DNA from: Anaerolineae bacterium
GTDB lineage: Bacteria > Chloroflexota > Anaerolineae > UBA1429
Reading direction: 5' to 3'
Assembly (NCBI GenBank): GCA_963675785.1
Contig: OY776562.1
Span: 2,368,001 to 2,432,000, forward strand
Length of the DNA: 64,000 nt
Below the pieces are notes generated by a model, which saw nothing but the letters and a program-made list of their open reading frames with translations, did not search any database and had not been told where the DNA came from. A program made the translations under genes and the position numbers. Of the stretch, positions 1 to 23,239 are shown in pieces; positions within the stretch are counted from its first letter, which is position 1, and each line of letters starts with the position of its first letter.

Positions 1-180
1 TACTAGTTCCAACACCGGATGCTGGCCCGCAAAGGGCAGGCAAGACGCGAGATCGTAGGCAGCAATGGTGCGCATCACCTCGGCACGCATCAAGGCAAAA
101 TCCACGCGTTGCTCGACAAGCGTGCCGTCCAAATCGAACAACCAGGCCCGAGCCCGGCTCAAACGTTCCAGATTGTCCAT
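1..180 (-). CDS. HAD-superfamily hydrolase, N-terminal part (runs off window edge)
   Basis: Manual translation from ATG at 180: MDNLERLSRARAWLFDLDGTLVEQRVDF...; contains HAD motif I DxDGT; starts 1 nt after the upstream gene's stop. Confidence 0.8.
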   Translation of the reverse strand, partial: MDNLERLSRARAWLFDLDGTLVEQRVDFALMRAEVMRTIAAYDLASCLPFAGQHPVLELV

Positions 181-181
181 G

Positions 182-3100
182 CTATTTGAATCCCAACACC
201 CGGTTATTCAACGTATCGCACACATAGAGCGTGCCATCATCACTCAGGGCCACGCCAGTAGGCTGGTTCAAGCCATTCACGCCCGATCCCGTCTGCCCCC
301 AGGTTCTCACCAGATTTCCCTCGCCATCAAACTCTAGGATACGGTCATCCTCGGGATCACTGACAAACACATGGCCCTCATCATCCACAGCGATATAGGG
401 CTTGTTCACCACGGAGGTGCCTTCCCAGGAATAGATTGTCCATTCCCGGACATAGCGCAACTGATCATCAAAAACCTGTACGCGGTGATTCCATGTATCC
501 ACCACATATAAATAGCCGTCAGGGCCTATCGCCAAGCCCACCGGCTCTTGGAACTGGCCCGCATCCGAGCCAGAGCCGCCGATGATAGCCAGCGTGTCTC
601 CATCGGCATTGTACTTGACGATGCGTTTGTTACCGGTATCGGCCACATACACGTTACCCTGCTCATCCAGAACGATATCACGTGGACCATAGAGTAAATA
701 GCCCGAGCCGGACACATCCTCTTGACCAAACTGCCCCCAGGCATTGACGAGTGTGCCATCGGGGTCAAACACCTGGATGCGCCCGTTCCAGGTATCGGCC
801 ACATAACAAGTGCCATCATCGGCTACAGCAATGCCCCAGGGTTCGGAAAACTGGCCCAGCTCGGAACCGCTGCTGCCCAAAGTGCCAATTTCGATGCCTT
901 CACTCGACAGAATGGTGACACGGTTCGCCGATCCTTCGGCAATATAGATATTGCCCTCAGCGTCTATGTCAACATCTTTGGGCGCACTCAAAGTCAACGT
1001 GTCCGCTGAACCTGTCAGGATCACATCGGCGTCTACTGATTCCCACAAGTCGAGGTACTCGTCGCCCGGGAGCGTACCGTCGAGCGAAGCCGTCTCGATG
1101 CCATAATCCCAGAGCTGCTGCGCAATATCGCGGCGAATATACATGGAAAAGCGGCTCACCAGCGGCCAATTATCGGTGCTCACGGTGTATTCACGACTCC
1201 AGATAATGTTCCATATCTGCTCGCGACTCTCAGCGTTGGTGAGCTTGTCCCACACATTGCGCAGGGTAAGGTTAAAATAGGTGTCTTGATTGGGCCACCA
1301 AATGAGGCGGTAATCACGCACATAATAGTCAGTACCCAGATAAGATGAGACTGCCGCTTGGTTACCAGAACTCACCAGAATAACATCAGCGCCCATTACG
1401 CTAGAAGCTGTATCTTCTGTAAAGAGAATGCGGTTATCGAAATCGCGCAGGTACCACTCGAAAGGCCACGATGATTCGTTGTCATAAGCAACTGTGAGGT
1501 GCAGATCGCCGGTCAAACGCTCTGAAAGCTCTTCCAACTCGTCGGCCACCAAAGCCACGTCTGGCGTGCCCTGGGCGTATACCATGTATTCGGTCGCCAT
1601 GGCCGCATTGCTAAAGCTAGCCATGAAAGCAAAACGTAGTGTGACGGCAGCCAGGATAGAGAACAGCGACAGACCGACCATGCGCCAGCCATCTTGGCGC
1701 GACAGGCGAGACAGGATCCGTGTCATGAAATAGATCACAATTGCCCCGCCAATGAGAGTGACAACCGTTCTCATCCACTCTTGCTGGGCAATGCGGCTCA
1801 CATCCAAAGGGTTCCCCGGCGAAAGCAGGCGATAAACGACATAGAGAAGCATGGGCACGAGAAGCAGCAGCCACAGGCCACCCTTTTCGCGCAGCGCCTT
1901 CCAGTCAGTCTCAAACAGGTGTGCTGCGGTCCAACCGGCCAATAACTGCATCGGGATGGCGATGTGGATCATCAACCAGGGCATTTTCTCGCCAGCCCAG
2001 CTGTACATGACAAAAGTAAGGACAAACCAAACGATGAGCAGCGGCACAAAGGGGATGGAAGGTAGGTTGCTCAAGCCTTCGATCTGCGGCGATTTCTGGC
2101 GGCGATCACCTTTGGCGGCGTAAACACCAATGCCGCAAAGAGCGAGGATGAGCGGCAGGAATTCGTACAGCGAGATGAACAGGGCATAGTAATAGCCAGG
2201 CTGGTTGCCGCGCTTGACGCCCTGCTGAGAAAGCCAGTAACCCAACTGCCCCACGATACCCGTCGCTAGGCCCTCGACGGGATTGGTGAACATGCTGGTA
2301 AAGAGGGGGATGAAAATAGCCCAGAAAATGCCCGCCGAAACGAGCCACTTTTTGCGATTCCACAGAATGCCCAACAAAGCAGAAAGGGCAATCATGCCAC
2401 CCACAATGGCCGCCTTGGCCCCCAACTGGGTGGTGTAATCCACCGAATCCATGCCCAACAGGTTGATCACAAAGGGCGAGGCAAGGGGCAATATGAGCGT
2501 GACCATTACGGCCATGAGATCGAATACGGGAAGGTCGATAGCCTGACGGAAATTGAGCGGACGCATTCTATAAAGATGGTAGAGCCAATAGGCAAACAAG
2601 AACACGCCAAAGATGAAATAGGTAATAAAGGTGGTCTCTTTGGCCGTGAAGCCCAATGATATCATGGCGGCAGCCAAATAGAGATCGCGCGGTTTGCGAT
2701 GCGCAAGGTAGCGCAGGCTGGCCACTAACAATAACAGGTTAAAGAGCGCTACAAATTGATCGTGGCGAATGTAGCGAGAACGAGTCATCAATACGGGCGA
2801 AATGGCCATAAATAAGGCGGCCAACAGAGCACCCTTTTTGCCCAACCACTCTTTGAGCAGCAGGGGCACCAGGGTGATGCCGATGCCAAAGAGAGCCGCC
2901 CCCAGACGCGCTGTAAAGTCGGTATCGCCAAATATGGAAAAGATAAAGGCCGTAAACGTGTACAGGAAGGGGCCATGATAGACGGGGTTATGTTGGTAGC
3001 CCTGGCCGGTGATGTATTTCCATGACATCCAGGCATGGATGCTCTCATCATGGCTGTAAGCACGCCCGCCCAGGTCCCACAGGCGAGTAAATACGACAAA

Positions 3101-3199
3101 GACAAACACCGCCACATAGAGCACCATGAACCATGAAATTCGCGAGCCCTTGAACAGCGGCCGGTCTAGAAATGTTGTTCGTTCCTGATCATTGGTCAT
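182..3199 (-). CDS. TIGR03663/Agl23-like GT-C-fold membrane protein fused to C-terminal NHL-repeat beta-propeller
   Basis: 1005 aa, many TM segments; N-terminal HDE and YHGP motifs typical of TIGR03663; ~6 NHL repeats (P.GIAV..DG..YV.DT.N.RI) in the last ~270 aa. Confidence 0.85.
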   Translation of the reverse strand: MTNDQERTTFLDRPLFKGSRISWFMVLYVAVFVFVVFTRLWDLGGRAYSHDESIHAWMSWKYITGQGYQHNPVYHGPFLYTFTAFIFSIFGDTDFTARLGAALFGIGITLVPLLLKEWLGKKGALLAALFMAISPVLMTRSRYIRHDQFVALFNLLLLVASLRYLAHRKPRDLYLAAAMISLGFTAKETTFITYFIFGVFLFAYWLYHLYRMRPLNFRQAIDLPVFDLMAVMVTLILPLASPFVINLLGMDSVDYTTQLGAKAAIVGGMIALSALLGILWNRKKWLVSAGIFWAIFIPLFTSMFTNPVEGLATGIVGQLGYWLSQQGVKRGNQPGYYYALFISLYEFLPLILALCGIGVYAAKGDRRQKSPQIEGLSNLPSIPFVPLLIVWFVLTFVMYSWAGEKMPWLMIHIAIPMQLLAGWTAAHLFETDWKALREKGGLWLLLLVPMLLYVVYRLLSPGNPLDVSRIAQQEWMRTVVTLIGGAIVIYFMTRILSRLSRQDGWRMVGLSLFSILAAVTLRFAFMASFSNAAMATEYMVYAQGTPDVALVADELEELSERLTGDLHLTVAYDNESSWPFEWYLRDFDNRILFTEDTASSVMGADVILVSSGNQAAVSSYLGTDYYVRDYRLIWWPNQDTYFNLTLRNVWDKLTNAESREQIWNIIWSREYTVSTDNWPLVSRFSMYIRRDIAQQLWDYGIETASLDGTLPGDEYLDLWESVDADVILTGSADTLTLSAPKDVDIDAEGNIYIAEGSANRVTILSSEGIEIGTLGSSGSELGQFSEPWGIAVADDGTCYVADTWNGRIQVFDPDGTLVNAWGQFGQEDVSGSGYLLYGPRDIVLDEQGNVYVADTGNKRIVKYNADGDTLAIIGGSGSDAGQFQEPVGLAIGPDGYLYVVDTWNHRVQVFDDQLRYVREWTIYSWEGTSVVNKPYIAVDDEGHVFVSDPEDDRILEFDGEGNLVRTWGQTGSGVNGLNQPTGVALSDDGTLYVCDTLNNRVLGFK

Positions 3200-3214
3200 G
3201 AAAGCATCTCCAAC

Positions 3215-4921
3215 CTAATTCGCGAAAACCCACACCTGCACGCTGGTTTCCTCAAGATCACCTATGGCATCTCGCCACAGCAACCAGCTCAGCAGAGCGT
3301 TGGCATCATCCAGATGTTCGGTCCAATCCCAGCTCTTGCTCATAGAGAAAGTTTGAGCAACCATGCCCAGCGGGCCATCACGGCCATCCGCCGGGGCAAT
3401 CAATACATCATACGTTGCATCAGCATCCGCTGCCGAAACGCATTCAAAGCCACGTGTGGCCCACAGCGCCTGCGGCGAGACATCGGCATCGATGGCAACC
3501 ACGGCAACAGAAGCATCACCCAGATTATGTGCAGAATATGTATGAATCCAATCCTCTAGGAGCGACACCTCGCTGGAAGAAACATCCTCCACCAGCAGTT
3601 CCCGGGGATCTGCGGCCGTTTGATAGCCCACAGCCGTTGCACTGCGGATGGTGACCATAGCGGCTATGGCGCATAGCATCGCCAGGGCAATACGCCCCGC
3701 ACCCCAATCTGTGGTATAGGCGCTCATGGCCAGGGCAGCAACAATGCCGATACCACAGGCAACAAGGGTCATTGAAAGCACAGTGTTGTTGGCATAGACC
3801 ACATAGCTGGCTACCGAGAGGCCGCCAAACACTAGAAAAAGCCCAATCCCCCAAAGCAAGATGCCCTCGCGTGTACCAGGACGCGGCCAATTGACGATCA
3901 TATGCTGCAAACCGAATCCGGCCAAAACCACGGCCGGCACGAGGATGGCCATGGATGAGGAAAGAATAGCCTGTCCGGAGAGCAAGCCATAGAAGATCGC
4001 CATCCCCGCCCATATGGACAGGCCAATGCCCGCAGCATTGCGTTGGTGAATGCTACTGACTACTCCCGTCACGGCCAGAATGGTGAGCAGCGGCTCATAA
4101 AGCAGGAGCACAGCGAGCTGTTTCCACCAGAGCTGCGGCGCAAAGAGCAGCCCAAACTTGCCGATGCTGTCGATAGTCGTAGCGATGCCATCCAGATTGG
4201 TGAGTAGAGCGCTGGACAGCATCAAGAACACAGCCAGAGCAATCAGCCAGTCCTGTCCATCCTTCAACCAGGCGGAGAGGCGCTGGCGGATGATCGTCCG
4301 CTGGGAATAGCCTGACAGACGGTAGGCAGCCCAGCCAGCCACCGCAGCACCGAGCAGGGTGCCCACAAAGGCACCACCTGCTACCAAGCCAACGCCGACA
4401 AGGATAATCGAGGCTTTGGCACAGCGGGAATCGCCCTCAGCCCAGGCACGCCAAATGATCACCAGCCAGGCCAGAGACATCGCCCCCACCAGAATGCTGG
4501 TCGATGAGGTGCGCGAGGCCAAGGCCCACACGGGGCTCACCAATAAGAGCAGGCTCATGCCCAAGGCGCCCCAGCGCCCCACGTAACCTCGCAGGCCCAA
4601 GGGCAGCAGCACAATTAAAGAGCCCAAGAGTGCCGGCAGCACACGAGTTGCCACCACCGAGCTACCGAATATCTCAAACATGAGGGCGTCTGCATCATAC
4701 AGTAGTGCCGAATAGGCGTCGGGCAGGGCCTTCAGACCCAAAGCGCCCAAGGCCGTGAGCAAGCCCTCACTCGATAGAGGTGCATCGCCAAGCGCCCAAA
4801 AGCGCGCGAGCAGTGCCGCGAGGGCAATCAATGCATACGCGGCTACCTCGACAGTAATCGTAAACGGCCGTGACTCTTTTCCTGGCAATTCGCTGGAAAC
4901 TGTGGAATCAAACATGCTCAT
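3215..4921 (-). CDS. PMT/GT-C-like polytopic membrane protein, degenerate TIGR03663 paralog
   Basis: 568 aa hydrophobic; shares layout with neighbour (R-W-x-LG after TM1, R..ALLG, SPV...SR, LYE.L) but lacks DE and HGP. Confidence 0.65.
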   Translation of the reverse strand: MSMFDSTVSSELPGKESRPFTITVEVAAYALIALAALLARFWALGDAPLSSEGLLTALGALGLKALPDAYSALLYDADALMFEIFGSSVVATRVLPALLGSLIVLLPLGLRGYVGRWGALGMSLLLLVSPVWALASRTSSTSILVGAMSLAWLVIIWRAWAEGDSRCAKASIILVGVGLVAGGAFVGTLLGAAVAGWAAYRLSGYSQRTIIRQRLSAWLKDGQDWLIALAVFLMLSSALLTNLDGIATTIDSIGKFGLLFAPQLWWKQLAVLLLYEPLLTILAVTGVVSSIHQRNAAGIGLSIWAGMAIFYGLLSGQAILSSSMAILVPAVVLAGFGLQHMIVNWPRPGTREGILLWGIGLFLVFGGLSVASYVVYANNTVLSMTLVACGIGIVAALAMSAYTTDWGAGRIALAMLCAIAAMVTIRSATAVGYQTAADPRELLVEDVSSSEVSLLEDWIHTYSAHNLGDASVAVVAIDADVSPQALWATRGFECVSAADADATYDVLIAPADGRDGPLGMVAQTFSMSKSWDWTEHLDDANALLSWLLWRDAIGDLEETSVQVWVFAN

Positions 4922-4947
4922 CTCTTTACAACTAGAACGACAAGAGG

Positions 4948-4956
4948 ATTATACCA
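4948..4956 (-). promoter_or_regulatory. Extended -10 promoter (TGgTATAAT) for the 4921-to-1 genes
   Basis: Minus strand TGGTATAAT in the 50-bp gap, ~27 nt upstream of start 4921. Confidence 0.6.
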
Positions 4957-4971
4957 CACCACTTTTTTCGG

Positions 4972-7326: not shown

Positions 7327-7341
7327 GGATACTCCTCCAGG

Positions 7342-10300
7342 TCACATGGACGCGGGAACCTCATAGATTGCAGTCTCCGCATTTTGGTAGACGCGCTGTA
7401 GTTGACCAAGCGCCGCAAGCTGCTCGAACTTTTCCAAGCCTTCAGCATTGTACATGGCGTTCTCAAGCTGGCCTACATAGATGTACCGTACATCATAGAG
7501 AGATAAAAGGTCAAAGAAAAGGGCCTCGTCTGTGGTGTTGTACAGGGTCGAAACATCGTTTTGCCGACTCAGCACCGTCGCCCCATCGTGCTGTTCGCCA
7601 GAGTGCGCCCCTACGATGACCGCCAAACCCGTATAGGAAGAAACGCGCATGCCGCCTTCGCGATAGTAGCCTACATAGGCCTCCAGCAGGACGGGCGCAC
7701 CCTCGACGTTGTTCCACAACCAGGTGATCGCCTCGTAATCGTAGGTCAAGTCAATGGTATTGCTGGCATCAGGCCAAGTGTAAACGCCGCCGTCCATATA
7801 TGCCAGACCATCCAGTCCTACGGGGCGCGGTCCAACCTGACCGTTCACCTCGGGAAAGCGCTGAACGATACGTGAGGGAATGCTGAACGGCACATAAGAA
7901 AACCCGATAAACAGCACGAGCAGCAGACCCACGCGCCACGACCAGCGTCCCCAACCGAGTTTTTTGCTGGCCCGCCAGAGCAGGGGCAGTGTCGCGCCCA
8001 CAGCCAGCCCAATGAGAATCCAGGACTGAATGCCGAATTTGAACACCGTGTTCATGCGGAACCAATCGCCGCCATCCAAAAAATCGGGGAGATAAACGAG
8101 CTCTACACAGAGCAACATGCCCCAGCCGATACATAGCAACAGCGCGATCATACGTAGAGCCGCTGAATCGGCAGTAAGAGCGCCCCAGCCAGATAGCAAC
8201 ACCAGTACCGCGCACAGCCCCACCACTGGATGTACCCAGAAGCCCAGGGCGACACCGCCAACAATAGCCGCCAGAACCACGCCCCAAGTAGCCTTGCGTA
8301 AGCCGGCTGAAAGATGAGCCAGCTGCCATACCAGATAAGAGATGGAGGGAATGAGCAGCGTTCCCCATACCACAAACCACAATGCCGGTGCCGAACGCGA
8401 TGCCGAAGGGACGAGGCTGAGACCCGATTCGGGGGCATCAAAGGTAGCGTAAAAAGGCGCATAGAGAAGCACCGCCAGCAACACTAGGGCAAGCGCTATC
8501 AACAAGCCAATACCCAGGCCATGCCATCGTGCCTGCCTCCAGCCGCGTAACACCAGTGCCCCGGTCAGCAGCAGCACGGCGGCGGGCAGAGACCAGGTGT
8601 TCATGGGACCCAACGCACCCAGAGTCACAACAGCCCAAACAAACCAGCAGAGGGCACGTCGCCAGAAGAATGTCTCTTGCTCCTGAGCTAATACGGCCCA
8701 AGCCAAGGCCGCAATAAAGAGCATAAAGGGAATGGCGATCATGTGCGGATGCAGATCGGCAAACAGGAAACTGAAAAAGGGAAACTCGTTGATGGTATAG
8801 GGGATAATGCGCGTGCCATGGCTCCAGTAGTCGAACGAGCCGAGCTGCGCTGACCCTGCCAACACGCTGCGCAGCCCCTGCCACACAGCGCCGATATCGG
8901 ACCACTGCCAATCGGTGGCCGAGGCAAAAGTAGTGCCGCCGGCTGCAGCTAATTGCTCCAAGAGCTGCGCAAACGACGAAAGGTTGGCCAGCAAGGCCAC
9001 ACAAGCCGCGGCCGCCACCCCACCCCATAAGGCCAAACGCGAATCGAGGCGCTCGCCAGACAATCGCGAGGTCAACCATCGCCCCAGGCTATAGGCAATG
9101 GAAATGGTGAGTGCGAAAAAGGTGGGAATAGCCAGATTGAAAGCCACTTCGGGGGTCAGACCAGCCAACTTTTGCAGAAAATTGACCACGAACAAGCCGT
9201 AATAGTAATAGTTGATCGTCAGACCGGATAGATAGGGATCATAAGGCGGCATATAAGCCGATTTCGAGGTGGCGTTGAGAAAGGCGATCTCCATCATCTT
9301 TTCGCCGCCGTACCAGGGCTGCCACAAATCGGGGTTGAGCATGCGGATGATGACAAAGACGACGAACGCCGCGGTAAAGATCAGTTCAGTGCGCAGGATA
9401 TCCTGCAGGATATCCTGGCCGTTCTCGCGCCAGGCAACGCGCAACGCGGGTTGGCGGCGCCAGGCGCAAATCCCGACGATGAACATCACGCCCAGCACAG
9501 CCCAGGCCCAGCCAGCACTGTTGGGGATGATCTCCAGACTAGAGCCCAACCACAGCAGCAAACTGCCGAGCAGTAAGCCTGCCGTGCGCGCAAAACCATA
9601 GCCCTTGCCGGGCAGCGCCTCAAACAAGGGAGCGATGAGCGGCCAAGCGGCCAGACCCAACAGCCACAGCACCAACCACCAACTGACAATGGCAACATTG
9701 TCAGAAACAGCCGCGAGTGAGTTCCACCCGCGGCTGTCGACGGTCTCCCGCCCCAGAGGATCGAGCGCTGCTTCTTCGGCAGTAGCGCCATCGTCCTCAT
9801 CGGCCAGCACCGAAGCGCCAACCCAATGTTGGTTCAGCCAGCCCTTGATGCCATCGAGCAGACCGACAGCCTCGCTAACTTCTTTCTCTCCGATGACCTT
9901 GTAGATGACGGTATTGCCCTGTGAAAAGACAATCTCAAGGCTTTGACCCTCCATCTCGGTGAACTTGGACAAGCCCAAAGCGGTGTAGGAACTGCGTTCA
10001 ATCTGCCCCACCATCACATAGGCCACATCATATTCATCCAGAATCTCGAGAGCTCGTGAGATATCCTCCGTGTTATAGAACTCGGACACATCCTGCAGGC
10101 GCCAATCAATGCGCGTGCCGCCGGCCACAGAGCGCTGCTGGCGTTGGTGCCAATCCCAGCCAATAACCGTGGGCAGGCCAGTATAGATGGACACCCGACT
10201 ACCCCAACGATAGAGCTGGCCCACGCCTTCCATCACCACCGGCGAACCCTCGACGTTCTCTTGCAGCCACTCGATGGCCGCCAGATCCTCGTTGAGGCTC

Positions 10301-13300
10301 TCCGCCATGACGCCATCGTTATACATGGCCCGCTTCATAAAAGCGGTGCCATCCAGCGTGGCCTCTTGCTCAGAATCCCATTTATCGTTGACCTTGCCCC
10401 AGGTGCCCAGCACCGGATAAAGAAGGCCCGCAACCAGTAATAATACAAAAGCCACCCGCCAGAGCACCTTGCCCCAGGAGCGCCAGTTCACTTGGGCGTG
10501 CAACAGATCGGGGAGGAGCAACGCCGCGACCACGGCCCAGAGTATCCAGGCTTGCAAGTAGAACTTGAAGACGGTATTCATGCGACCGATATCGCCGTCC
10601 AGCACCACGTATTCAACAGCGATGACCAGCCCGGCTCCAACGGCTGCCAGAATACCAGCAAAGCGCATCATGTCGCTGGAATCCTGACGCAGGGCCAACC
10701 AACCACCCAAAGCCAACACCGGCAAAGCTAAGAAAAGTGCCCAGGAGCCAGAGAATAGAGCCATCACTTCTACCAGCAGCAGCACCAGAGCCAGAATCCA
10801 CAGATAGCCATAGGCCACGCTCTGGCAGCGCACCAGCAGGTCATAGAGGTGCGTGCGTCGTTCGCCATGACCAAGCTGCGTGCCCCATAAACGCGCGCGG
10901 CGCGCACAGGCATCGCGAGAGCGCCGCCGGAAACAGGCACCCAGCAAGCCAGAGAGGAGCGGCACATAGAGCACGATCCAGATGGTCAGCAACTCGCTCA
11001 GGGTGCTGGTCTCGCCCTCCCACAGTTCAAAGCTGGAATAGGCCGAGCCGTAAGCGCTGTGGAAAGGCAGATAGAGGATGATGCTCAACGCCACCAAGGT
11101 CATGGTTAGCAGCACCCAGGTGCGAATGGACTTGAAATCGACATGCCTAGCGGCGGCATAGATGCCCACAGCCAGCGCCGCGATGGTAATCAGTAGATAG
11201 GTGGGATAATCCCAGGTGTTGGTACACCACAAGGCCCCCACCACCAGTGCGCTGAGGCCCACAGAAAGGCCCAGCCGCAGCCAACGGCGCTTGCCATCAG
11301 TCTGTGAGCCGTCACGCAGCACAAAGATCAGATTAACAGCCAACCCCAGGGCCAGTACCACCAGCGGCATGGCCATCACATGGGCATGCAAATCGCCATA
11401 CAAGAAGGAAAAGAAGGGGAACTCGTTGATCTCGCCGTTGGCCATAATGCGCGAGGCGTTCCAGTACCACCACTCGGGACGGAAAGACAGGGTGATATCG
11501 GTTGTTAGCCAGGTCCAAAAGCCCGTAGCGGCCTGAGACAGGCCCGATGCGGTTGTCTCCACCAATCCCCGCGACAGGGCCAGGTCTTTGAAGCCACCCC
11601 ACAAGAGCTCTAGCTCGCCCAGATTACCGATGATCGCCGCCAGCACCGCCCCCACTAGACCAGCCCCCAGCCCAGAGAGCAGTTTTTTAGCGCGCGGGCG
11701 CAGATTATACACCAATGAAACAACGCCCGAGACCAGCATGGCGAAAAAGGTGGGGATGAGCAGGTTGTAGGCGGTGGTGGGCACAACCGCCGAGAGCTTG
11801 ACCATCACGGCGCTCAAGACAAAGCCGAAATAGTAATAGTTGATATAACCACCGGCAAACCAGGGATCATAGGCCGGGAACCAGGTGCTCTTGATGATGG
11901 CGTTGAGGTAGGCCAAGTCCATAGGCTTTTCGCCACCCGTCACCGAATGCCACAGATCGGGATTGGCGCGACGGATGAGCCAGAACAGGGCAAAAGCTCC
12001 CATAAAGATAACGCTCTGCGCCAGCATGAGCTGCCAGTGTTCGCGTAGCCAACTACTCAAAGCAGCGCGGTTACGCCAAGCACACCAAACTGCCAAGGCC
12101 CAGAGCACAGCGACAAGGCACCACAACACCGTCTGCGTAAAAGGCAACACCTTGACCGAGGCGCCCAACCAACTGAGCCATCCCACGACCACGAGGCCCA
12201 GCGTCAAAGCAAAGCCATAGCCGCGATCACGCAGGCCGCTGAACAGCGGAAAGCCCAATACAAAGGCCGGCACCGCCAGCAGAAACAGGATGAGCAACCA
12301 GGCCAACGTGGGCACGCTGTTGGCCAGTGAATCGCGGTCAAACATCTCGGACCAAGTGCCGCCCGCTTGCTGCTCCTCCCATTCTTTGTCCGAGAGCAGC
12401 AATGCTGTGGGCGCCTCGGTGATCTCGACGGGGCGCGTCCGGGCGATGCGCTCCAAGTCATAATCGTCAAAGAGTGCTTGTACGGCCGCAGGGTCATAGT
12501 CCGCGGTCTTGCGATAAATCAACACCCGTGGATGGTCATAGACGGTAAAAGTCTCATCGGCATTGTCATCTACGAACTCGAATCCCAACAGAGACGGGCG
12601 CGAGGTGAACTCGGCTACCAACTCAAAGCCCAGGTCACCGTCGAACAAAGCCTCATAGTAGGCCGTGGCCATGGGGTAGCGGCTCTCCATACGAGGGATG
12701 GAACCATAAAGGCGATTGCTGGAGAGGATGATGTAATCCGCCTGATCCAGCCAATTGTAAAGCGACTCGCGCTTGTCCTCAATGTCCTCCCAGTAGAGAT
12801 CCATGGTGATGATGTCATACTCGATGCTGGCATTATGACCATCGATATTGAGGGGCAGGGCGTCATCCCATAGTTCGTAGGTAATGCTCGTGCCCTCAGG
12901 GATATTCTCATAGATCCACCGTGAGGCCGTGAGACGCGTCACTGGCTCGGAATAGATGCCCATAAAAGAGATGGCATAGAACAGTGTGCCCAGCACCACA
13001 ACACCCGCGCCACCATAAGCGGCCACACGCGGCCATTTGATACCCCCCCGCCTGGCGCTGTATTCTTTGGCTCGTGAACAAAGGTACATCAGGCCATAGC
13101 CCGCCACCAGAGCCATAGTCGGATAGATGGGCAGCATATAGCGCACTGTTTTAACGAACTGGACGCTCTGATAAAAAAAGGTCAGCGTCATCCAGGTCCA
13201 GGGCAAGAGGTGCTGCCACCTCTTTTTAAAGAACATGTCATAGGCCATCAGGCCCCAGGAGGCCCACACGGCGAGGCCCAAGGGCACACCAAGACCCCAC

Positions 13301-14391
13301 AACACCATGTTCTTGAGGGAGTACCAGACGGGTGTACGATCCGTCCACTGGTCGCTGGGGGGATAGTCGGTCTCGCCGGTCACCATCTTTTGGCTGGATT
13401 CCATATCATCCAGCCACTGCTCGTTCAGTTGGAGATCAAAAAAGCCGGGGCCGGTAAAGGCCTGAGGCTGGGCGACACGAAAGGTGAACAAGGCGACCAC
13501 CAGAATGACCACCAAGGTCAGCGCAGTAGGCAGTAAGCGAAAGAGGAAGCGATCCGTCTTGGATTCGGGGCATTCCAACGGCGTCTCGGCTTCGCAGGTC
13601 AGGCGGACGCGGCCCAGGCGCAACCGCCAACGGCCGATGTAATCGGGGCGAACGTGTTCGGCGTCCTGACAAGCCCGCACCGTACGCTGAATCAACGCCA
13701 AGCCAATGACGGCCAAAAAGGTGAGCACGCTGATCTTGCTGCTAACGGCCATACCAAAGGAAAAGCCCAGCAGCAATACACTGCCCCAGCCGGCCCCCTT
13801 GGCCACGCGCACCGCTGCCAACAGAGCCAGGGTGACAAAAAAGGTTGTGGAGGAATCCACCGTGAAAAAGTGGGCGTGCTGGATGCTGAGCACCGACATG
13901 GAAAAGAGCAGGGCGCTCAACAAGCCGGTGCGCCGATTATAGAGTGCCTTGCCGATGAGATAGACAATCAACACGCAGGCCAGATCCATTACGCCGGACA
14001 TGACCCGCCCCGCCAGATAGACGCCCGAATAGCCGGTATAGCCGGTGAGTTGACCCACTGCCTTGGACAACACCACCGGAAAGATGCCGTACACATACGA
14101 ACCAAAGCCCTTGTTGTAGGGACTCAAGGGGTTGATGGAGCTGTCCCAATAGTCGCTCAGTGAGTCGGGCCATTCCAGGCCGTTCTCTACCATGGTAAGA
14201 AAGCGCTCGTCGGGATGCAGATGGGTGCCATCGTCCCAATCGACGTTGTAAAAGCGGAATATCGCTCCCAGCACGAGGATGGCAAGCAGCAGGATCGTCG
14301 CGCCGCGTTTGGTGTCCGTCCAGGCCAGCAGACGCTGCCAGGTGCTCATTTCGTCGTCTTTTACAATGTGGGGTTCACTATTGGGCATCAA
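7342..14391 (-). CDS. Giant tri-modular membrane glycosyltransferase: PMT/ArnT-like module plus two DUF2298 (YYY) modules
   Basis: 2349 aa uninterrupted ORF; HPDE module at N-terminus; two copies each of EK.M, YYY.G (~11830, ~9200), INEFPFFSFL..DLH.H and RMNTVFKF. Confidence 0.88.
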   Translation of the reverse strand: MMPNSEPHIVKDDEMSTWQRLLAWTDTKRGATILLLAILVLGAIFRFYNVDWDDGTHLHPDERFLTMVENGLEWPDSLSDYWDSSINPLSPYNKGFGSYVYGIFPVVLSKAVGQLTGYTGYSGVYLAGRVMSGVMDLACVLIVYLIGKALYNRRTGLLSALLFSMSVLSIQHAHFFTVDSSTTFFVTLALLAAVRVAKGAGWGSVLLLGFSFGMAVSSKISVLTFLAVIGLALIQRTVRACQDAEHVRPDYIGRWRLRLGRVRLTCEAETPLECPESKTDRFLFRLLPTALTLVVILVVALFTFRVAQPQAFTGPGFFDLQLNEQWLDDMESSQKMVTGETDYPPSDQWTDRTPVWYSLKNMVLWGLGVPLGLAVWASWGLMAYDMFFKKRWQHLLPWTWMTLTFFYQSVQFVKTVRYMLPIYPTMALVAGYGLMYLCSRAKEYSARRGGIKWPRVAAYGGAGVVVLGTLFYAISFMGIYSEPVTRLTASRWIYENIPEGTSITYELWDDALPLNIDGHNASIEYDIITMDLYWEDIEDKRESLYNWLDQADYIILSSNRLYGSIPRMESRYPMATAYYEALFDGDLGFELVAEFTSRPSLLGFEFVDDNADETFTVYDHPRVLIYRKTADYDPAAVQALFDDYDLERIARTRPVEITEAPTALLLSDKEWEEQQAGGTWSEMFDRDSLANSVPTLAWLLILFLLAVPAFVLGFPLFSGLRDRGYGFALTLGLVVVGWLSWLGASVKVLPFTQTVLWCLVAVLWALAVWCAWRNRAALSSWLREHWQLMLAQSVIFMGAFALFWLIRRANPDLWHSVTGGEKPMDLAYLNAIIKSTWFPAYDPWFAGGYINYYYFGFVLSAVMVKLSAVVPTTAYNLLIPTFFAMLVSGVVSLVYNLRPRAKKLLSGLGAGLVGAVLAAIIGNLGELELLWGGFKDLALSRGLVETTASGLSQAATGFWTWLTTDITLSFRPEWWYWNASRIMANGEINEFPFFSFLYGDLHAHVMAMPLVVLALGLAVNLIFVLRDGSQTDGKRRWLRLGLSVGLSALVVGALWCTNTWDYPTYLLITIAALAVGIYAAARHVDFKSIRTWVLLTMTLVALSIILYLPFHSAYGSAYSSFELWEGETSTLSELLTIWIVLYVPLLSGLLGACFRRRSRDACARRARLWGTQLGHGERRTHLYDLLVRCQSVAYGYLWILALVLLLVEVMALFSGSWALFLALPVLALGGWLALRQDSSDMMRFAGILAAVGAGLVIAVEYVVLDGDIGRMNTVFKFYLQAWILWAVVAALLLPDLLHAQVNWRSWGKVLWRVAFVLLLVAGLLYPVLGTWGKVNDKWDSEQEATLDGTAFMKRAMYNDGVMAESLNEDLAAIEWLQENVEGSPVVMEGVGQLYRWGSRVSIYTGLPTVIGWDWHQRQQRSVAGGTRIDWRLQDVSEFYNTEDISRALEILDEYDVAYVMVGQIERSSYTALGLSKFTEMEGQSLEIVFSQGNTVIYKVIGEKEVSEAVGLLDGIKGWLNQHWVGASVLADEDDGATAEEAALDPLGRETVDSRGWNSLAAVSDNVAIVSWWLVLWLLGLAAWPLIAPLFEALPGKGYGFARTAGLLLGSLLLWLGSSLEIIPNSAGWAWAVLGVMFIVGICAWRRQPALRVAWRENGQDILQDILRTELIFTAAFVVFVIIRMLNPDLWQPWYGGEKMMEIAFLNATSKSAYMPPYDPYLSGLTINYYYYGLFVVNFLQKLAGLTPEVAFNLAIPTFFALTISIAYSLGRWLTSRLSGERLDSRLALWGGVAAAACVALLANLSSFAQLLEQLAAAGGTTFASATDWQWSDIGAVWQGLRSVLAGSAQLGSFDYWSHGTRIIPYTINEFPFFSFLFADLHPHMIAIPFMLFIAALAWAVLAQEQETFFWRRALCWFVWAVVTLGALGPMNTWSLPAAVLLLTGALVLRGWRQARWHGLGIGLLIALALVLLAVLLYAPFYATFDAPESGLSLVPSASRSAPALWFVVWGTLLIPSISYLVWQLAHLSAGLRKATWGVVLAAIVGGVALGFWVHPVVGLCAVLVLLSGWGALTADSAALRMIALLLCIGWGMLLCVELVYLPDFLDGGDWFRMNTVFKFGIQSWILIGLAVGATLPLLWRASKKLGWGRWSWRVGLLLVLFIGFSYVPFSIPSRIVQRFPEVNGQVGPRPVGLDGLAYMDGGVYTWPDASNTIDLTYDYEAITWLWNNVEGAPVLLEAYVGYYREGGMRVSSYTGLAVIVGAHSGEQHDGATVLSRQNDVSTLYNTTDEALFFDLLSLYDVRYIYVGQLENAMYNAEGLEKFEQLAALGQLQRVYQNAETAIYEVPASM

Positions 14392-16304: not shown

Positions 16305-16313
16305 GGGTGCCTC

Positions 16314-17222
16314 TTATTCCCCGATTCCATCCTCTGGTTTGCGCGCCAGTACACCGACGTTCACAAACGTCTTTTTGCGCGCCAGGCGCTGGGGATTCTC
16401 ATTGAAATGATCGAACCAGCGAAAAAGCCCCAGAACCCAGTTGATGGGATTATACCAGCTCCCCTTGTTATCCGTTCCCTGAAAACGGTGTGTCGATTTA
16501 GCCAAGAACCCCGGCAACAGGTTATGGTCGATCAACCCCTTGCCAAAGGTGTAGACGATGGTTTGTGTGGCGGGGAAACAATAGTGGGTGAGCATGTCCA
16601 TCTGCACCACCTCAAAGCCCGCCGCAACTATGCGCTCGACGATCTGCTCACGGGTATAGAGGCGCACATGATTGGCCCAGATGCCCGCAAAAGGCCCTTT
16701 ACGAATGGGTCGATGGAACAGTCCTTCGGCCACACGATTGATGGGATCATACCAGGCCGGATAGTTACTGCAAGGCACAGTGATGGCCAACATGCCGCCC
16801 GGCTTGAGCACGCGATACATCTCGGCCAAGCCGCGGTCATCGTCCGGCAGGTGCTCGATGATCTCGGAAGCGATGAGCCGATCGAAAGAGGCATCAGCAA
16901 AGGGCATACGCTGAATATCGCTGCGCGACAAGAGCAGGCGGGCCTGATCGACGTGCTGGCGGGCGAAATCGAGCACACGAGGCTCCATATCGCAACCCCA
17001 CACCAGGCAATCGGTATAGAGCGAATGCAGCACCATGGGGTAAAAGGCCATGCCCGTGCCGCAATCCAGAATGCGGTCCCCCGGCTGCACGTTCAGGTAG
17101 CGCAACATCGTCTTGACCCGCCGCCGATAGGCCACGTCGGACTCGTTGCGCAACAGCGCTTCCAGCGTCTCTCGTTGGGCTGGGGTCAGCTCCAGATCGG
17201 GGTTTACTGTACTGGCCATCAA
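16314..17222 (-). CDS. Class I SAM-dependent methyltransferase
   Basis: ILDCGTGMA motif I, MPFADASFD, EIIEHL, RVLKPGG. Confidence 0.88.
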   Translation of the reverse strand: MMASTVNPDLELTPAQRETLEALLRNESDVAYRRRVKTMLRYLNVQPGDRILDCGTGMAFYPMVLHSLYTDCLVWGCDMEPRVLDFARQHVDQARLLLSRSDIQRMPFADASFDRLIASEIIEHLPDDDRGLAEMYRVLKPGGMLAITVPCSNYPAWYDPINRVAEGLFHRPIRKGPFAGIWANHVRLYTREQIVERIVAAGFEVVQMDMLTHYCFPATQTIVYTFGKGLIDHNLLPGFLAKSTHRFQGTDNKGSWYNPINWVLGLFRWFDHFNENPQRLARKKTFVNVGVLARKPEDGIGE

Positions 17223-18355
17223 TTCACCAGCCGCTCGAATAACGTCTCGTAAGCATCGATAGTACGCTCCAGACTAAACACATTGCGGATGGTCTCGGGC
17301 GACTTGATATAGGCCTGACGGTTACGCAACACCTCGATGATCCCCTCGGCCAAAGCCCGTTCGTTCCGCGGCTCGACCAGTTTGCCCATGCCTGTCACTT
17401 GCAGCACCTCACGGGCACCGGGAATATCGGTGGTCACCAACGGCGTGCCACAGAGCAGCGACTCGATCTGTACACTGGGAAAGCAATCAGTGCGACTGGG
17501 CAGGGCGAACACATCGCACATGGCGTAAAAGTTGGCCAACTTTTGCTGATCGGTCAGCAAGCCCAGCATGGCAATGGCATCCTTGTGGGCCTCGAGCATG
17601 GGACAACAGGATTCATAAAAGCCCTCATAGACGACGTTGCATTCGCCCGCATAGGCGAAACGCACATCGGGGAAAGCCTCTTGCACAAAAGGGATAGCCT
17701 TGAGCAGATAATCAAAGCCCTTTTCCTCGACAAAGCGGCCGGCAAAGCCCACCAAGGGTTTGCCCTGCAGACCCAGCTCAGTGCGCCAGAAGGCAACAGC
17801 CTCGCTATCGGGATCGGGCAGCACCGCCGGAGGATAGATGGCCTCTAGTTTATCGAGATAGGGCCGCAAATAAGCCGAATGCTCGGCGTAATCCTGGCTG
17901 TGGGTGGTGATGACATCGGCAGCGGCAGCGCCGTCGTCCAGCATCCTGCCCACCGTCAGCTGTACGAACTGGTTAAATAGCCCACTGGGCATTACCAAGT
18001 CACCATGATGGGTCATGACCATCTTTTTGCCAGCGCGATGGGCGATCCGCCCTACCAGGGCTGTCTCCAACATGGGGGTATGTACTTGAACGATATCGTG
18101 CTCGGCCATGAGCTGTTTCACCATACGCGGAAAGATGGGCATCACCCGACCGCGACTGAGACGAAACCAACTGGGCACACGCACAATGCGCACGCCAGCG
18201 TGCTCGTCTTCCAGAGGCTGATCATCCGCAAACTGGGCGGTCACCACCGTCACCTGGTGGCCGCGAGAAACGAGGCCTTCGGCGATGCGTTTGGCATAGG
18301 CAGTGAGCCCGGTCCAGTGGGGATAATAATAGGTTAGGGCCATCAGGATCTTCAT
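17219..18355 (-). CDS. GT4-family (GT-B) glycosyltransferase
   Basis: MKIL..LTYYYPH..G start, FAGRFVEEKG, DVFALPS..DCFPSVQIESLLCGTP. Confidence 0.9.
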   Translation of the reverse strand: MKILMALTYYYPHWTGLTAYAKRIAEGLVSRGHQVTVVTAQFADDQPLEDEHAGVRIVRVPSWFRLSRGRVMPIFPRMVKQLMAEHDIVQVHTPMLETALVGRIAHRAGKKMVMTHHGDLVMPSGLFNQFVQLTVGRMLDDGAAAADVITTHSQDYAEHSAYLRPYLDKLEAIYPPAVLPDPDSEAVAFWRTELGLQGKPLVGFAGRFVEEKGFDYLLKAIPFVQEAFPDVRFAYAGECNVVYEGFYESCCPMLEAHKDAIAMLGLLTDQQKLANFYAMCDVFALPSRTDCFPSVQIESLLCGTPLVTTDIPGAREVLQVTGMGKLVEPRNERALAEGIIEVLRNRQAYIKSPETIRNVFSLERTIDAYETLFERLVN

Positions 18356-18376
18356 GAAATGCGATTCTCCGGAAAA

Positions 18377-19411
18377 TCAATCCGTGCTATCAACGCTGGC
18401 GCTGTCGCCGAGAATATCGCGCCGCACATCAGAGAAGGAGAGATCCTGGCTGCGCAAAGATAGCAAACCATAGACAATGAGGGTGAGATTGGTGAACATG
18501 TGCAGGCCAAAGGCATAAGCCGAAGCATCGGCATTGCCCACTGCAAAGACACCAGTGAGCACCAGCACCGCGGCCGCCTCAAAGGGGCCAATGGCGCCCG
18601 GCGAGGAAGGCACAACCATGGATAGCCCGGTAGCGCAGAGTACGGTCAGCGCCGCTACAAAGGGCAAGTCTGTCATGCCCAAGGCCAGAAATAGCACATA
18701 ATTGAGCAGTGCATAGCCCAACCAAACCACCAACGACCAAGCCAACGAGCGCAGTAAAATGCCGGCATCGGTTAGCACGCCAAAGCCCTCGACTAAACTG
18801 GTCACCAAGCGCTTGACGATAGGATGGCCAAGCACAGGAATGCGTGCCATCTTGGCCCAAAAGCGCTCGGTCGCGGCCTCACTCAGACGCGAGAGCACCG
18901 CCAAAATGACAATGCCCACCAAAGCAACGATACCGAGGAGAATGCCCCCCTGCACTAACCACTGGGGCAAATCGACAAAGGGAAGCAAGCCGAGAGCCAA
19001 AAAAACAACGACGAGCACGTCGAGGAGGCGTTCCACCACCAGTGAGGAGGCGCCTTGCCCCAGTCCCCCCTTGAGCTTACGCCCGGCCAAATAAGCCCGC
19101 ACCACTTCGCCCGCCTTGGCCGGCAGCACATTGTTGAACAGGTAGCCAATGTTGACGATGGCGAACACTTGCAGCACCGGAATCGTCTTTTCACCCATGA
19201 GCACACGCCAACGCATGGCCCGCGCCATATTAATGCCCACCAGCAATAACAAGCCTGGCAGCAAATAGTCATATTTGCCGTTGGCAAAGATGCGCCACAG
19301 TTCGGTGAAATCCACTTTGGCAAACACATACACCAGACAGGCAGCGCTGATGAGAATGCCGATAATCAATTGCAGATGGTTACGAAGCCAGTTCAAGACA
19401 GACTTGATCAT
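18377..19411 (-). CDS. Lysylphosphatidylglycerol-synthase TM / UPF0104 flippase-like membrane protein
   Basis: RAMRW, GYLFNNVLPAKAGEVVR, VERLLD, PSSPGAIGPFE motifs. Confidence 0.85.
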   Translation of the reverse strand: MIKSVLNWLRNHLQLIIGILISAACLVYVFAKVDFTELWRIFANGKYDYLLPGLLLLVGINMARAMRWRVLMGEKTIPVLQVFAIVNIGYLFNNVLPAKAGEVVRAYLAGRKLKGGLGQGASSLVVERLLDVLVVVFLALGLLPFVDLPQWLVQGGILLGIVALVGIVILAVLSRLSEAATERFWAKMARIPVLGHPIVKRLVTSLVEGFGVLTDAGILLRSLAWSLVVWLGYALLNYVLFLALGMTDLPFVAALTVLCATGLSMVVPSSPGAIGPFEAAAVLVLTGVFAVGNADASAYAFGLHMFTNLTLIVYGLLSLRSQDLSFSDVRRDILGDSASVDSTD

Positions 19412-19460
19412 GTATCAACTCGTCGCTTCTGCCCACCTGAACGGCAGGCTTATCCGGGCG

Positions 19461-19489
19461 ATTATAGCATCGGCAGCACATCGGGCCAA
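19461..19489 (-). promoter_or_regulatory. Sigma70-type promoter TTGGCC-17-TATAAT with TGn extension
   Basis: Minus strand, in the gap upstream of the 19411 start. Confidence 0.6.
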
Positions 19490-19493
19490 GCCC

Positions 19494-21335
19494 TCAGTCA
19501 GCGCTCTCACCAGCCATGAGCAGATCGTACAGCGCGTCGGCAGTGAAATACCCGGTGTTGGCAAAAACCAAGGTCATGGGGTGATCATAAACATCATAGC
19601 TCTCGTCAGCACGCCCGATGACCAAGCCGTTCTGACGCTCTTGTTCAATCAGTTCAGGCAAAGCCAAGTCCGTGCCCGTAAAAGTATCGTTGATCAGGTC
19701 AAGGCCGAATAAGGATGGGTAGCTTGATGCAGTATAGACGAGTTCATAGCCCAACTGTTCCGCAAAAAGCTGCTGATAGTAATTCGTAGTCAGCGGATAG
19801 CGCTCGGGCAGACGCGTGATGGTGGCATATAGGCGCTGGCTGGACAAGATCACATAGTCGGCGGAGGCCAGCTTTTCGGCCAATTCGGCCATTTTTTCTT
19901 CCGAATCCACGCCATAGGAATCAAAGCTGATCCATTGCACCCATTTGGTTGTGTCCCAGCCATCCACTCGCGTGACGGGCAAATTGTCATCCCAGGTCTC
20001 GCAGATCACTATTGATCCACGGGGCGCATCCTCTGAGAACCACAGCGAGGTTTGCACCCAGGTATGGGGCTCGTCATAAATGCCCAGATAGGCACAAGTA
20101 TAGAGGCCGCTGCCACTCAAAACGAGAACCAGCAGTGCACCACCTGCCGTATGCCAATGACCACGTTGCTTTAGGCAACGCTCGATGAGCATGGCTGCCC
20201 AGATAGACCACACGGGAAAGATGGGTAGCATATAACGCAAAAATCGCGCCTGCATCCTGCCAATGATGGCGAAATAGATGAGCGTCCAAGCAAAGAGGAT
20301 GATCGTGCCAACCTCAAAGGTGTGTTCACGGCGCCAGTCGCGCAGAGCCGCAATCGCCTCTCCGATACCGCCAACAAGGGCTGCCAGCCCCAGGGCTATC
20401 CCTGTCGACCAGACTACCGCCTGCTGTAACTGATACCAATAGGCGGTGGTACCCAAGAACTGGCGCGTATAGGGCACATCGATCAAGCCGCTGGCCATGC
20501 CGGATTCAAAAGTGACGTCGATGATAAAGGCGCCAATATCGATCAGGGCATAGGGTTCGATGATGAGAAAGATGACTATGCCAACGAGGACGGTCATTGC
20601 TGACAAGGAAATAGCCTGCCAAAGCCGCAGCCAAAAGCGATTTCCGGTTCCTTCAATAGACGCCAGGAAAAAACCAAGAAAGATGCAAACGCCAATGGGA
20701 GCCGCCGAAAGCTTGGTGGCCATAGTCATGCCCAAAACAACGCCAATCAACGCAGCCCGCTTAGCGGAGGGAGCTTCTGACGCCCAGAGGATGAGATAAA
20801 AGAGGAGTACAAGAAAAGTGGTGAGCAATGTATCCACAGTATAGAAATGGGCCAGCTGTACGTGGAGCACCGTCAGTGCCGTCAGTGCCGCAGCAATGAG
20901 GCCCACATTGGCGCTCCTTAGCTTTTTACCCAACACGTACACCCAAAAGACAGTCAGTGTGTCCGCCAAAGCCGAGATGATCCGCCCTACGAGATAGGGC
21001 TCGACCTCATAGTTGAACCATGCGCCGATGGGCGTTATCACATCAATGGCAATACGTAGCAAATAAACGGGCAGCGAGCCGTAGGAGAAGAAATCAGGGT
21101 TCCAGGGACTGTCCGCGCTCAGAAGGAGCTGCAAGTCCAGTGGCCAGGGGAAAGAGAGGTCATCCACCACCATGAGCAATTGGCGCTCATCTGGGTGAAA
21201 CTGGAGGCCATTATCCCAGTTGACGCCGTAGAGACGCACACACAGGGCACACACCAAAATGGCAGCCAGGGCCCATTTTTGCCAGTAGGCCGCTGGCTGG
21301 TCCTTTGCGTAGGAACGTGTCGCTTTGTCAGTCAC
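19494..21335 (-). CDS. PMT/ArnT-like GT-C glycosyltransferase; stand-alone paralog of the N-terminal module of the 2349-aa protein
   Basis: [40 protein letters not shown] each match module A; GTG start overlaps the lepA stop (GTGA). Confidence 0.85.
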
Positions 21336-23183: not shown

Positions 23184-23239
23184 TTTGTTGGATGACGATT
23201 CCCAACAAACTACCCCTGACAAGTATACATCAGGGGTAG
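23184..23239. promoter_or_regulatory. Two tandem inverted repeats upstream of lepA; TATACT (minus) lies in the loop of the second
   Basis: TTTGTTGG..CCAACAAA (23184-23209) and CTACCCCTGA..TCAGGGGTAG (23210-23239). Confidence 0.45.

Follow-up and report, generated by a model that had tools for sequence, protein, structure and literature searches.

The window analysed here is 64,000 nt of an Anaerolineae bacterium (contig OY776562.1, positions 2,368,001 to 2,432,000), and its positions 1-21335 hold an array of ten minus-strand genes, nine complete and the start of a tenth, rich in putative membrane glycosyltransferases of fold class C (GT-C). It belongs to a single 3.22-Mb contig from a genome that is 94.8% complete, and the nearest relatives of its proteins come from uncultured Anaerolineae (Chloroflexota). 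We write A for a module of PMT_2 type and B for one of the DUF2298/TIGR03662 family. In transcription order the genes encode a stand-alone A-type GT-C protein (g9), a flippase-like protein (g8), a GT4 enzyme (g7), an S-adenosylmethionine (SAM)-dependent methyltransferase (g6), an ArnT-like protein (g5), an A-B-B fusion (g4), a stand-alone B (g3), a degenerate TIGR03663 paralog (g2), a TIGR03663 protein with an NHL domain (g1) and a HAD hydrolase (Table 1). A sequence-only reading of this DNA had listed the same ten co-oriented, tightly packed genes in this order; all are indeed on the minus strand, with neighbours overlapping by up to 4 nt or lying at most 82 nt apart. Its count of eight GT-C-like modules also holds: spread over six polytopic proteins are four PMT_2 matches (one of them also matching TIGR03663), three DUF2298 modules and one degenerate paralog. 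For the extent of the array, the gene list was right but the co-oriented run does not end at the edges it had been given. Upstream it extends through lepA, an AI-2E transporter gene and TlyA, and downstream through NUDIX and CCA-type nucleotidyltransferase genes; because it passes both edges, orientation alone cannot bound the system.

Table 1. Features of the array and its surroundings, in window positions
Feature	Position	Strand	Family match or remark
HAD-IA hydrolase, 223 aa	-491..180 (in window 1-180)	-	HAD_2 70 bits
g1, TIGR03663-NHL, 1005 aa	182-3199	-	TIGR03663 287.4 bits, NHL 133.5 bits
g1 C-terminal NHL beta-propeller, predicted outside membrane	197-847	-	NHL repeat, four stretches
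g1 GT-C membrane part (Agl23 family)	1436-3118	-	TIGR03663 287 bits, PMT_2 60.5 bits
g2, degenerate TIGR03663 paralog, 568 aa	3215-4921	-	TIGR03663 42 bits, no Pfam family
g3, stand-alone B (DUF2298/TIGR03662), 784 aa	4972-7326	-	TIGR03662 504 bits, PF10060 354.6 bits
g4, A-B-B fusion, 2349 aa	7342-14391	-	one PMT_2-type and two TIGR03662 modules
g4 B2 module (DUF2298/TIGR03662)	7357-9696	-	TIGR03662 532.2 bits
g4 B1 module (DUF2298/TIGR03662)	9895-12312	-	TIGR03662 563.5 bits
g4 A module, residues ~1-690	12322-14391	-	PMT_2 48.9 bits at genome 2381687-2382013
g5, ArnT/PMT_2-like GT-C, 638 aa	14388-16304	-	PMT_2 53.3 bits
g6, SAM-dependent class I methyltransferase, 302 aa	16314-17222	-	Methyltransf_11 70.4 bits
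g7, cytoplasmic GT4, 378 aa	17219-18355	-	Glycos_transf_1 93.9 bits, Glyco_transf_4 63 bits
g8, MprF-type flippase-like, UPF0104/LPG_synthase_TM	18377-19411	-	PF03706 169.3 bits, TIGR00374 73.7 bits
Promoter-like site in the 82-nt gap before g8	19461..19489	-	TTGGCC, 17 nt, TATAAT with TG
g9, stand-alone A-type GT-C, 613 aa	19494-21335	-	PMT_2 44.5 bits
lepA	21332-23152	-	overlaps g9 by 4 nt
UbiA-family polyprenyl-phosphate phosphoribosyltransferase-type, 290 aa	26649-27521	+	NF008977, NF008978

Four of the modules are GT-C by sequence, with g9, g5, the A module of g4 and g1 all passing the PMT_2 Pfam cut-off of 26.1 bits; genome-wide there are 18 PMT_2-type matches. The A module of g4 and g9 are paralogs (29% identity over 672 aa, E 7e-73), and both carry an HPDER motif, which in g9 lies in the first outer loop. 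g5 also gives a weak STT3 match (23-26 bits). Homology between the C-terminal domains of the A and B modules was considered and dropped (hhalign probability 6.6%).

The B modules in g3 and g4 pass the curated NCBIfam cut-off for TIGR03662 (300.25 bits), as does a fourth genomic copy (455.5 bits), and their YYY motif can be seen in the sequences. For g3, an AlphaFold2 model was built from 51 homologs, with a predicted local distance difference test (pLDDT) score of 90.4 and a predicted template modelling (pTM) score of 0.93, and was searched against 48,161 representative chains. Its ten best fold matches are all GT-C enzymes, at Z 12.6-14.9: AglB (14.9, with a root-mean-square deviation (rmsd) of 6.9 over 454 aa), ALG12 (14.7), STT3 (14.5), Pmt1/2 (14.1), ArnT (13.6), Pmt4 (13.5), AftB (13.1), AftA (13.0), ALG9 (12.7) and DPY19 (12.6). 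Foldseek found 20 matches to the same model at E<=0.001 (best 2.6e-6), all of them GT-C among the matches listed. Matched within the whole-protein model, the C-terminal domain (residues 649-784) resembles those of AglB, PglB and STT3 (Z 11.8 against AglB 3vu0, rmsd 2.7 over 115 aa; Z 9.8 against 3aag; Z 7.2 against 2zag). Despite loose fits, the consistency of the match list makes the predicted GT-C fold of DUF2298 convincing, and we read the model as a 13-helix core with the C-terminal domain outside the membrane. The sequence-only reading had predicted GT-C folds for these proteins, and the models of both g3 and g2 (below) match solved GT-C enzymes.

In studied GT-C enzymes the catalytic acid or base is found where the first outer loop begins. 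The invariant polar residues of DUF2298 fall in predicted outer loops (TEKPME 126-131, D148, E296, D306-x-H308-P-H310, N379/D382, R568 and H703), which the model would place outside the membrane; E127, invariant, and E131, nearly so, come just past the helix that aligns to GT-C helix 1. Of 102 family-invariant columns B1 keeps 74, B2 66 and the fourth genomic copy 77. All three retain E127, D148, E296, D306, H308, H310 and R568, and the C-terminal GW..H..QWRG motif is largely gone from B2. Sequence searching finds more than 5,400 DUF2298 relatives, while the protein atlas gave unnamed Chlor_Arch_YYY clusters in Bacillota, weak DUF6541 leads and nothing else. Full-text literature searches gave two papers that name DUF2298, neither of them functional, one unrelated paper that names TIGR03663 and none that names TIGR03662; papers on a 'YYY domain' otherwise deal with different proteins. 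The fourth DUF2298 gene (872 aa, G000:C1:2751134-2753359, locus L005) is solitary, lying between genes for enolase and a YhfC-type protease without glycosylation neighbours.

The remaining two GT-C proteins form a TIGR03663 pair. g1 exceeds the curated family cut-off (126.25 bits), and its first-loop residues H50, D51, E52 and H55 are retained in 35-39 of 39 orthologs (D51 in all 39, E52 in 38), as are H70 and H75-G-P77 in 34-38. Its NHL propeller is also found on an ortholog in another class. g2 falls below the cut-off, and hhalign aligns it to the g1 family with a probability of 100% (E 1.3e-59). The g2 model (pLDDT 88.4) fits ArnT with Z 24.7 (rmsd 4.0 over 404 aa), STT3, AglB and PMT with Z 23-24, and the top 20 fold rows are all GT-C or GT-C-like. 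Across 35 g2 orthologs only E52 and P77 survive, D51, H50, H55, H70, H75 and G76 being lost; identity to the window copy is 20-32% for g2 orthologs and 41-55% for those of g1. Because most conserved loop residues are lost and evolution is fast, g2 is probably a non-catalytic partner of g1. A complex prediction for g1 (1-530) with g2 (1-430) scored 0.02, which lends no support to contact between these parts. NCBIfam names TIGR03663 after Agl23 of Haloarcula hispanica ('flippase activity-associated protein Agl23'), and public records label g1 orthologs Agl23. The family had been taken to lack a well-established function; it has a studied member in Agl23, which PMC11182771 describes as a putative flippase of hexose-P-dolichol, a compound used in making haloarchaeal N- and O-glycans.

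Gene order is closely kept among near relatives. All five same-family genomes have the order lepA, g9, g8, (g7), g6, (g5), fusion, B, g2, g1, HAD, (NUDIX), CCA, with the g9 ortholog after lepA every time; g7 is missing from one, g5 is full-length in two and NUDIX went undetected in one. Wherever the examined stretch of these genomes reached far enough, TlyA and the AI-2E gene are present too. Three of five stretches outside the family retain lepA together with an A-B fusion, B and g2-like and g1-like genes. All 41 sampled relatives have TIGR03662; the copies are mostly tandem, and frames longer than 2300 aa are common.

For a wider view, 80 Anaerolineae loci were collected by the DUF2298 profile, 74 with a full stand-alone B. 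A TIGR03663-like gene follows B within 1.5 kb in 37 of the 56 loci having at least 2.5 kb of downstream sequence, and within 4.5 kb in five more. Directly upstream of B lies an A-B fusion in 33 of 48 loci (at least 5 kb of upstream sequence), and g5 stands immediately ahead of the fusion gene in 16 of the 27 with enough upstream sequence. Loci in which B has no partner probably hold the solitary DUF2298 paralog.

A DUF2298 contig scan returned Chloroflexota-type records only, plus one labelled Proteobacteria. In five loci from other classes, preselected for TIGR03662/TIGR03663 adjacency, B always adjoins a PMT_2-type gene or overlaps it by 4-11 nt, in unrelated surroundings. Three of these loci (L123, L125 and L126) add a PRK07233-type flavoenzyme, and L123 has UPF0104 as well. 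This CrtI/HpnE-like enzyme (PRK07233 is a 'hypothetical protein') shares 4 nt with the TIGR03663-type gene in L125 and L126 and follows UPF0104 in L123; the ortholog in our own genome (G000:C1:1365365-1366660) is unlinked to the array and adjoins acpS. In genome G076, of another class, an A-B-B fusion of 2583 aa ends in tetratricopeptide repeats (TPR) (L129:6684-14435, minus strand) and is surrounded by restriction-modification genes, away from the PMT_2-type pair in L130; that pair, located at TIGR03663 matches, consists of proteins of 787 aa and 1124 aa, the latter with the NHL propeller.

According to their TIGRFAMs descriptions, TIGR03662 and TIGR03663 co-occur and are often neighbours. 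Among 151 Chloroflexota genomes with a completeness of 85% or more, 101 have both families, three have TIGR03662 only, one has TIGR03663 only and 46 have neither (both in 100 of 150 if genome G078, included here, is set aside); the genome lists for the co-occurrence tallies were compared by hand. Among 14 control genomes both families occur only in Haloferax volcanii and Methanosarcina acetivorans. The genes thus cluster and co-occur in relatives, as had been proposed for checking. The phylum-wide core is the A-B(-B) fusion, the stand-alone DUF2298 protein and the TIGR03663 pair; to this, individual lineages have added the GT4, methyltransferase, UPF0104 flippase-like and ArnT-like genes. Since only the A-B fusion, B and the TIGR03663 pair are kept beyond the family, it was too strong to claim a whole pathway for the one locus.

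The accessory genes had been assigned to donor supply, with the GT4, methyltransferase and HAD proteins making or modifying a lipid-linked sugar that UPF0104 would flip. We find no support for this. g7 has zero predicted transmembrane helices, and all its NCBIfam equivalog matches are far under the cut-offs (38 bits against 480 for the GlcNAc-PG synthase model); g6 has no NCBIfam equivalog above cut-off, and the PpaX/PGP-type matches of the HAD protein are all sub-threshold. g8 is well identified (Pfam cut-off for PF03706, 33.4 bits), and g8-type genes stand beside B/TIGR03663 genes in other lineages (G029, L069, L081, L082, L111 and L123). UPF0104 proteins are, in PMC5898192, predicted flippases of archaeal glycosylation pathways encoded beside PMT/STT3-like genes. 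The documented GT4 and UPF0104 pairs (gpgSDF, hexSDF) make glycosylated membrane lipids (PMC12713373). The HAD gene follows g1 in all five same-family genomes, in only 8 of the 80 Anaerolineae loci and in none of the three cassette-bearing stretches from other families, and it travels with the NUDIX and CCA genes, leaving its membership in the system doubtful.

Known polyprenyl-phosphate-sugar synthases are GT2 or UbiA-type enzymes (PMC11127046), and the array locus holds neither type. Elsewhere the genome has 18 GT2 matches, including a GT2-GtrA fusion and a GT2 beside a second UPF0104. The best donor-synthase candidate would be the UbiA-type gene, 5.3 kb outside the array on the opposite strand and single-copy in the genome, which passes two decaprenyl-phosphate phosphoribosyltransferase equivalogs (NF008977, 255 bits against a cut-off of 234; NF008978, 237.5 against 207); its product would be a polyprenyl-phosphate-ribofuranose. 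A search of this 94.8%-complete genome gave no DprE1-type (ALO domain) oxidase, which makes ribofuranose likelier than arabinofuranose. The UbiA gene is beside TlyA in four of the five same-family genomes. In the 151 genomes NF008977 and TIGR03662 occur together in 96, TIGR03662 only in eight, NF008977 only in five and neither in 42. A UbiA ortholog was seen in none of the 80 Anaerolineae loci, whose flanks are too short to reach it, so that this count is uninformative.

On balance we favour the reading that the array is a real, conserved glycosylation cassette working on the outer face of the cytoplasmic membrane. Seven of its modules keep the polar residues of their own families and may be active: the two A-type modules, the ArnT-like one, the three DUF2298 modules and g1, with g2 as a presumed non-catalytic partner of g1. 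By analogy with known GT-C enzymes, the modules would add single sugars stepwise from polyprenyl-phosphate carriers to an extracellular acceptor, and that A is fused to one or two B modules suggests consecutive steps on one substrate. The donor would be made elsewhere, most plausibly by the UbiA enzyme, and the GT4 and UPF0104 proteins would more likely make and flip a glycolipid (a primer, an anchor or a separate product) than a polyprenyl-phosphate donor. As acceptor we favour a surface or surface-layer (S-layer)-type glycoprotein: Agl23 is a precedent, there is similarity to PMT_2 and PMT, NHL and TPR domains are present, and B ends in a domain like that of oligosaccharyltransferases. The glycan could be of the archaeal-style surface or S-layer kind first suggested. 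A lipid-anchored or wall polysaccharide, by analogy with mycobacteria, would be nearly as likely an acceptor. The earlier interpretation is thus partly supported, being right in kind and wrong in several details.

Several points weigh against the cassette reading. The fold matches of g3 are global but loose (rmsd 4.7-7.8 Å, Foldseek TM 0.27-0.34), and by the caution attached to the aligner Z values below ~13 are common among helical bundles. None of 51 DUF2298 members matched a GT-C Pfam model, hhalign of DUF2298 against the TIGR03663 family was null (probability 1.6%), and neither g3 nor the DUF2298 family profile had a sequence match in the PDB. The full-text searches turned up no functional study of any DUF2298 protein, and Agl23, the studied member of the other family, is described as a flippase and not a transferase (PMC11182771). 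To the missing GT2 or UbiA-type synthase in the array locus is added the absence of UbiA within ~8 kb of the B/TIGR03663 pair in nine other-class loci. The co-occurrence counts overstate their support because related genomes are not independent, and the synteny, including that of UbiA and HAD, could partly be inherited order because the region is a conserved housekeeping one (lepA, TlyA, ribosomal genes).

The foremost alternative, which we entertain tentatively, keeps the machinery and changes the acceptor to a lipid-anchored glycan or secondary wall polysaccharide comparable to the arabinogalactan and lipoarabinomannan made by mycobacterial Emb/Aft/Mpt enzymes. The GT4 enzyme would make a primer glycolipid that UPF0104 flips, the GT-C modules would extend it outside, and A-B-B would add alternating linkages. 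Eight modules in one array and 18 genomic PMT_2-type matches would suit multi-step polymer synthesis, AftA, AftB, AftD and EmbA/B are among the fold matches, and the lipid products of gpgSDF and hexSDF fit a primer of this kind. The nearby UbiA type, which co-occurs with DUF2298, corresponds to the step that opens the mycobacterial pathway to the arabinan donor, but the missing DprE1-type oxidase makes an arabinofuranose donor unlikely. Orthologs of the supposed primer genes lie outside the core (GT4 in 6 and UPF0104 in 4 of the 74 full-B Anaerolineae loci, many with short flanks), and NHL, TPR and the example of Agl23 all favour proteins.

It is unlikely that the array is not one system, with only DUF2298 and TIGR03663 cooperating and the GT4, methyltransferase, UPF0104, ArnT-like, stand-alone A and HAD genes being neighbours in a stable order. 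Such a view is encouraged by the order-conserved genes on both flanks (TlyA, AI-2E and lepA upstream; HAD, NUDIX and CCA downstream), by the B/TIGR03663 pair standing alone amid unrelated genes in other classes, and by the promoter-like site within the array, which agrees with 10 of 12 consensus positions and, as a consensus match only, carries no functional weight. It has to face the tight packing of the genes, the recurrence of g5 directly ahead of the fusion, the reappearance of UPF0104 beside the pair in unrelated contexts (L123, L069, L081 and L082), and the fact that every gene except HAD is glycan- or lipid-related.

Improbable, finally, is that the TIGR03663 pair and possibly DUF2298 are translocators or carrier handlers for lipid-linked sugars, the array serving enzymes encoded elsewhere: purified Haloarcula Agl23 translocated M5GN2-PP-lipid in liposomes and rescued a yeast rft1 deletion (PMC11182771), NCBIfam uses a flippase-associated name, and g2 is retained despite losing family-conserved loop residues, but g1 keeps its first-loop D-E pair almost without exception, DUF2298 retains acidic and His residues in equivalent loops, the array already has a separate flippase-like gene, and a three-module fusion is hard to reconcile with simple translocators.

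Within the cassette reading itself a more specific form can be drawn, a long shot in our estimate. DUF2298 would be the catalytic transferase, distantly related to oligosaccharyltransferases, of an ancient and unrecognised protein-glycosylation system shared by Chloroflexota and some Archaea, in which the Agl23-type pair delivers the donor, UbiA-derived ribofuranose is placed on surface proteins, and A-B-B builds a short defined glycan in one pass.

Some observations concern the surroundings of the array. A 12-pair stem-loop followed by T's (23210-23239, minus strand) and a promoter-like site (23222-23249, minus strand) both lie in the 118 nt that separate the AI-2E transporter gene from lepA, and may mark a boundary between transcripts ahead of the array. 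An MGH1-like glycoside hydrolase gene (25278-26543, plus strand) separates TlyA from the UbiA gene and looks inserted, because UbiA directly adjoins TlyA in G014, G020 and G023. Following the UbiA gene, a 132-aa frame matches no family and looks non-coding. Three phosphoribosyltransferase-type matches in the same class (G100:C130:6779-7648, G082:C1:595837-596706 and G162:C5:27799-28668) each contain one in-frame TGA, which may be the terminal stop codon. The rest of the window is a ribosomal-protein, rpoA, secY, tuf, fus and rpoB region; at 56703-58903 (plus strand) a diadenylate cyclase (DAC domain) gene and then a YbbR-domain gene make up the usual cdaA-cdaR pair. On the other side, a gene 2.5-4.2 kb ahead of the window and downstream of the CCA gene (L001:5758-7482, minus strand) encodes, on the strand of the array, a 574-aa protein without a Pfam or NCBIfam family; its ortholog is equally placed in G008. 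Elsewhere in the genome a second UPF0104 gene is directly beside a GT2 gene (G000:C1:135454-136883), and the GT2-GtrA fusion lies 14 kb past the window end (2446387-2447397); both loci are possible pairs of a lipid-phosphate-sugar synthase and a flippase.

The envelope of Chloroflexota is poorly understood and its layer structure disputed; to our knowledge it has no lipopolysaccharide. These bacteria are abundant in sludge, sediments and the ocean, and an eight-module GT-C cassette kept across most of the sampled phylum beside core housekeeping genes points to a major undescribed surface glycan. Half of the array modules come from an unstudied family, and DUF2298 now has a first structural placement together with testable residues. 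With both families present in Haloferax volcanii, where genetics is routine, their function is directly testable, which bears on the flippase-versus-transferase dispute over Agl23.

The array has partial likenesses to several known systems. With the PMT family it shares PMT_2 matches (A, g5 and g1), and relatives in other genomes match PMT too; the outer protein-binding repeats, NHL here and TPR in G076, parallel the MIR domains of PMT and the TPR repeats that eukaryotic TMTC proteins carry. The scores here are modest (44-60 bits), and there is no MIR domain. STT3, AglB and PglB are among the best DUF2298 fold matches and have a C-terminal soluble domain of the same type. Unlike them, DUF2298 has three extra N-terminal helices, and its core helices 9 and 10 are not joined by a long loop. 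The STT3 signature PF02516 matched none of 51 DUF2298 proteins and, genome-wide, gave only marginal partial matches (<=25.8 bits) in PMT_2-type genes; WWDYG, the motif of the oligosaccharyltransferase C-terminal domain, has no counterpart of its type in g3, B1 or B2 by pattern search. DUF2298 cannot be filed as an oligosaccharyltransferase.

The gpgSDF genes of Pseudomonas aeruginosa and hexSDF of Clostridium difficile likewise have a cytoplasmic GT4 adjoining UPF0104; the array differs in being without the deacetylase. GtrA/GtrB/GtrC and the Citrobacter youngae pentofuranose system follow the logic of a lipid-phosphate-sugar synthase, a flippase and a GT-C transferase. Against these three-component systems, our locus has UPF0104 in place of MATE or GtrA (GtrA-domain genes are present elsewhere in the genome) and eight GT-C modules instead of one. 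The Citrobacter synthase joins a HAD-family phosphatase domain and a UbiA-type phosphoribosyltransferase in one protein (PMC11127046), which gives the HAD gene of our array a possible role. HAD and UbiA genes are both near the array here, as separate genes 26 kb apart on opposite strands.

The mycobacterial enzymes EmbA/B/C, AftA-D and PimE offer the likeness of many GT-C enzymes building one polymer outside the membrane, and they are seen among the fold matches; the UbiA-type phosphoribosyltransferase above its equivalog cut-off recalls the mycobacterial DPPR synthase pathway. Here no DprE1-type domain and no sequence similarity to Emb/Aft was found, and fused multi-module proteins and DUF2298 are not in the mycobacterial set. 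The closest named relative is Agl23: g1 is above the TIGR03663 cut-off and has the same PMT_2-like membrane core, and the Agl23-family gene is, as we take it from the TIGRFAMs family description, likewise paired with a TIGR03662 gene. g1 differs from Agl23 in being bacterial, in adjoining a degenerate paralog, and in an extra 480-aa outer part that ends in the NHL propeller.

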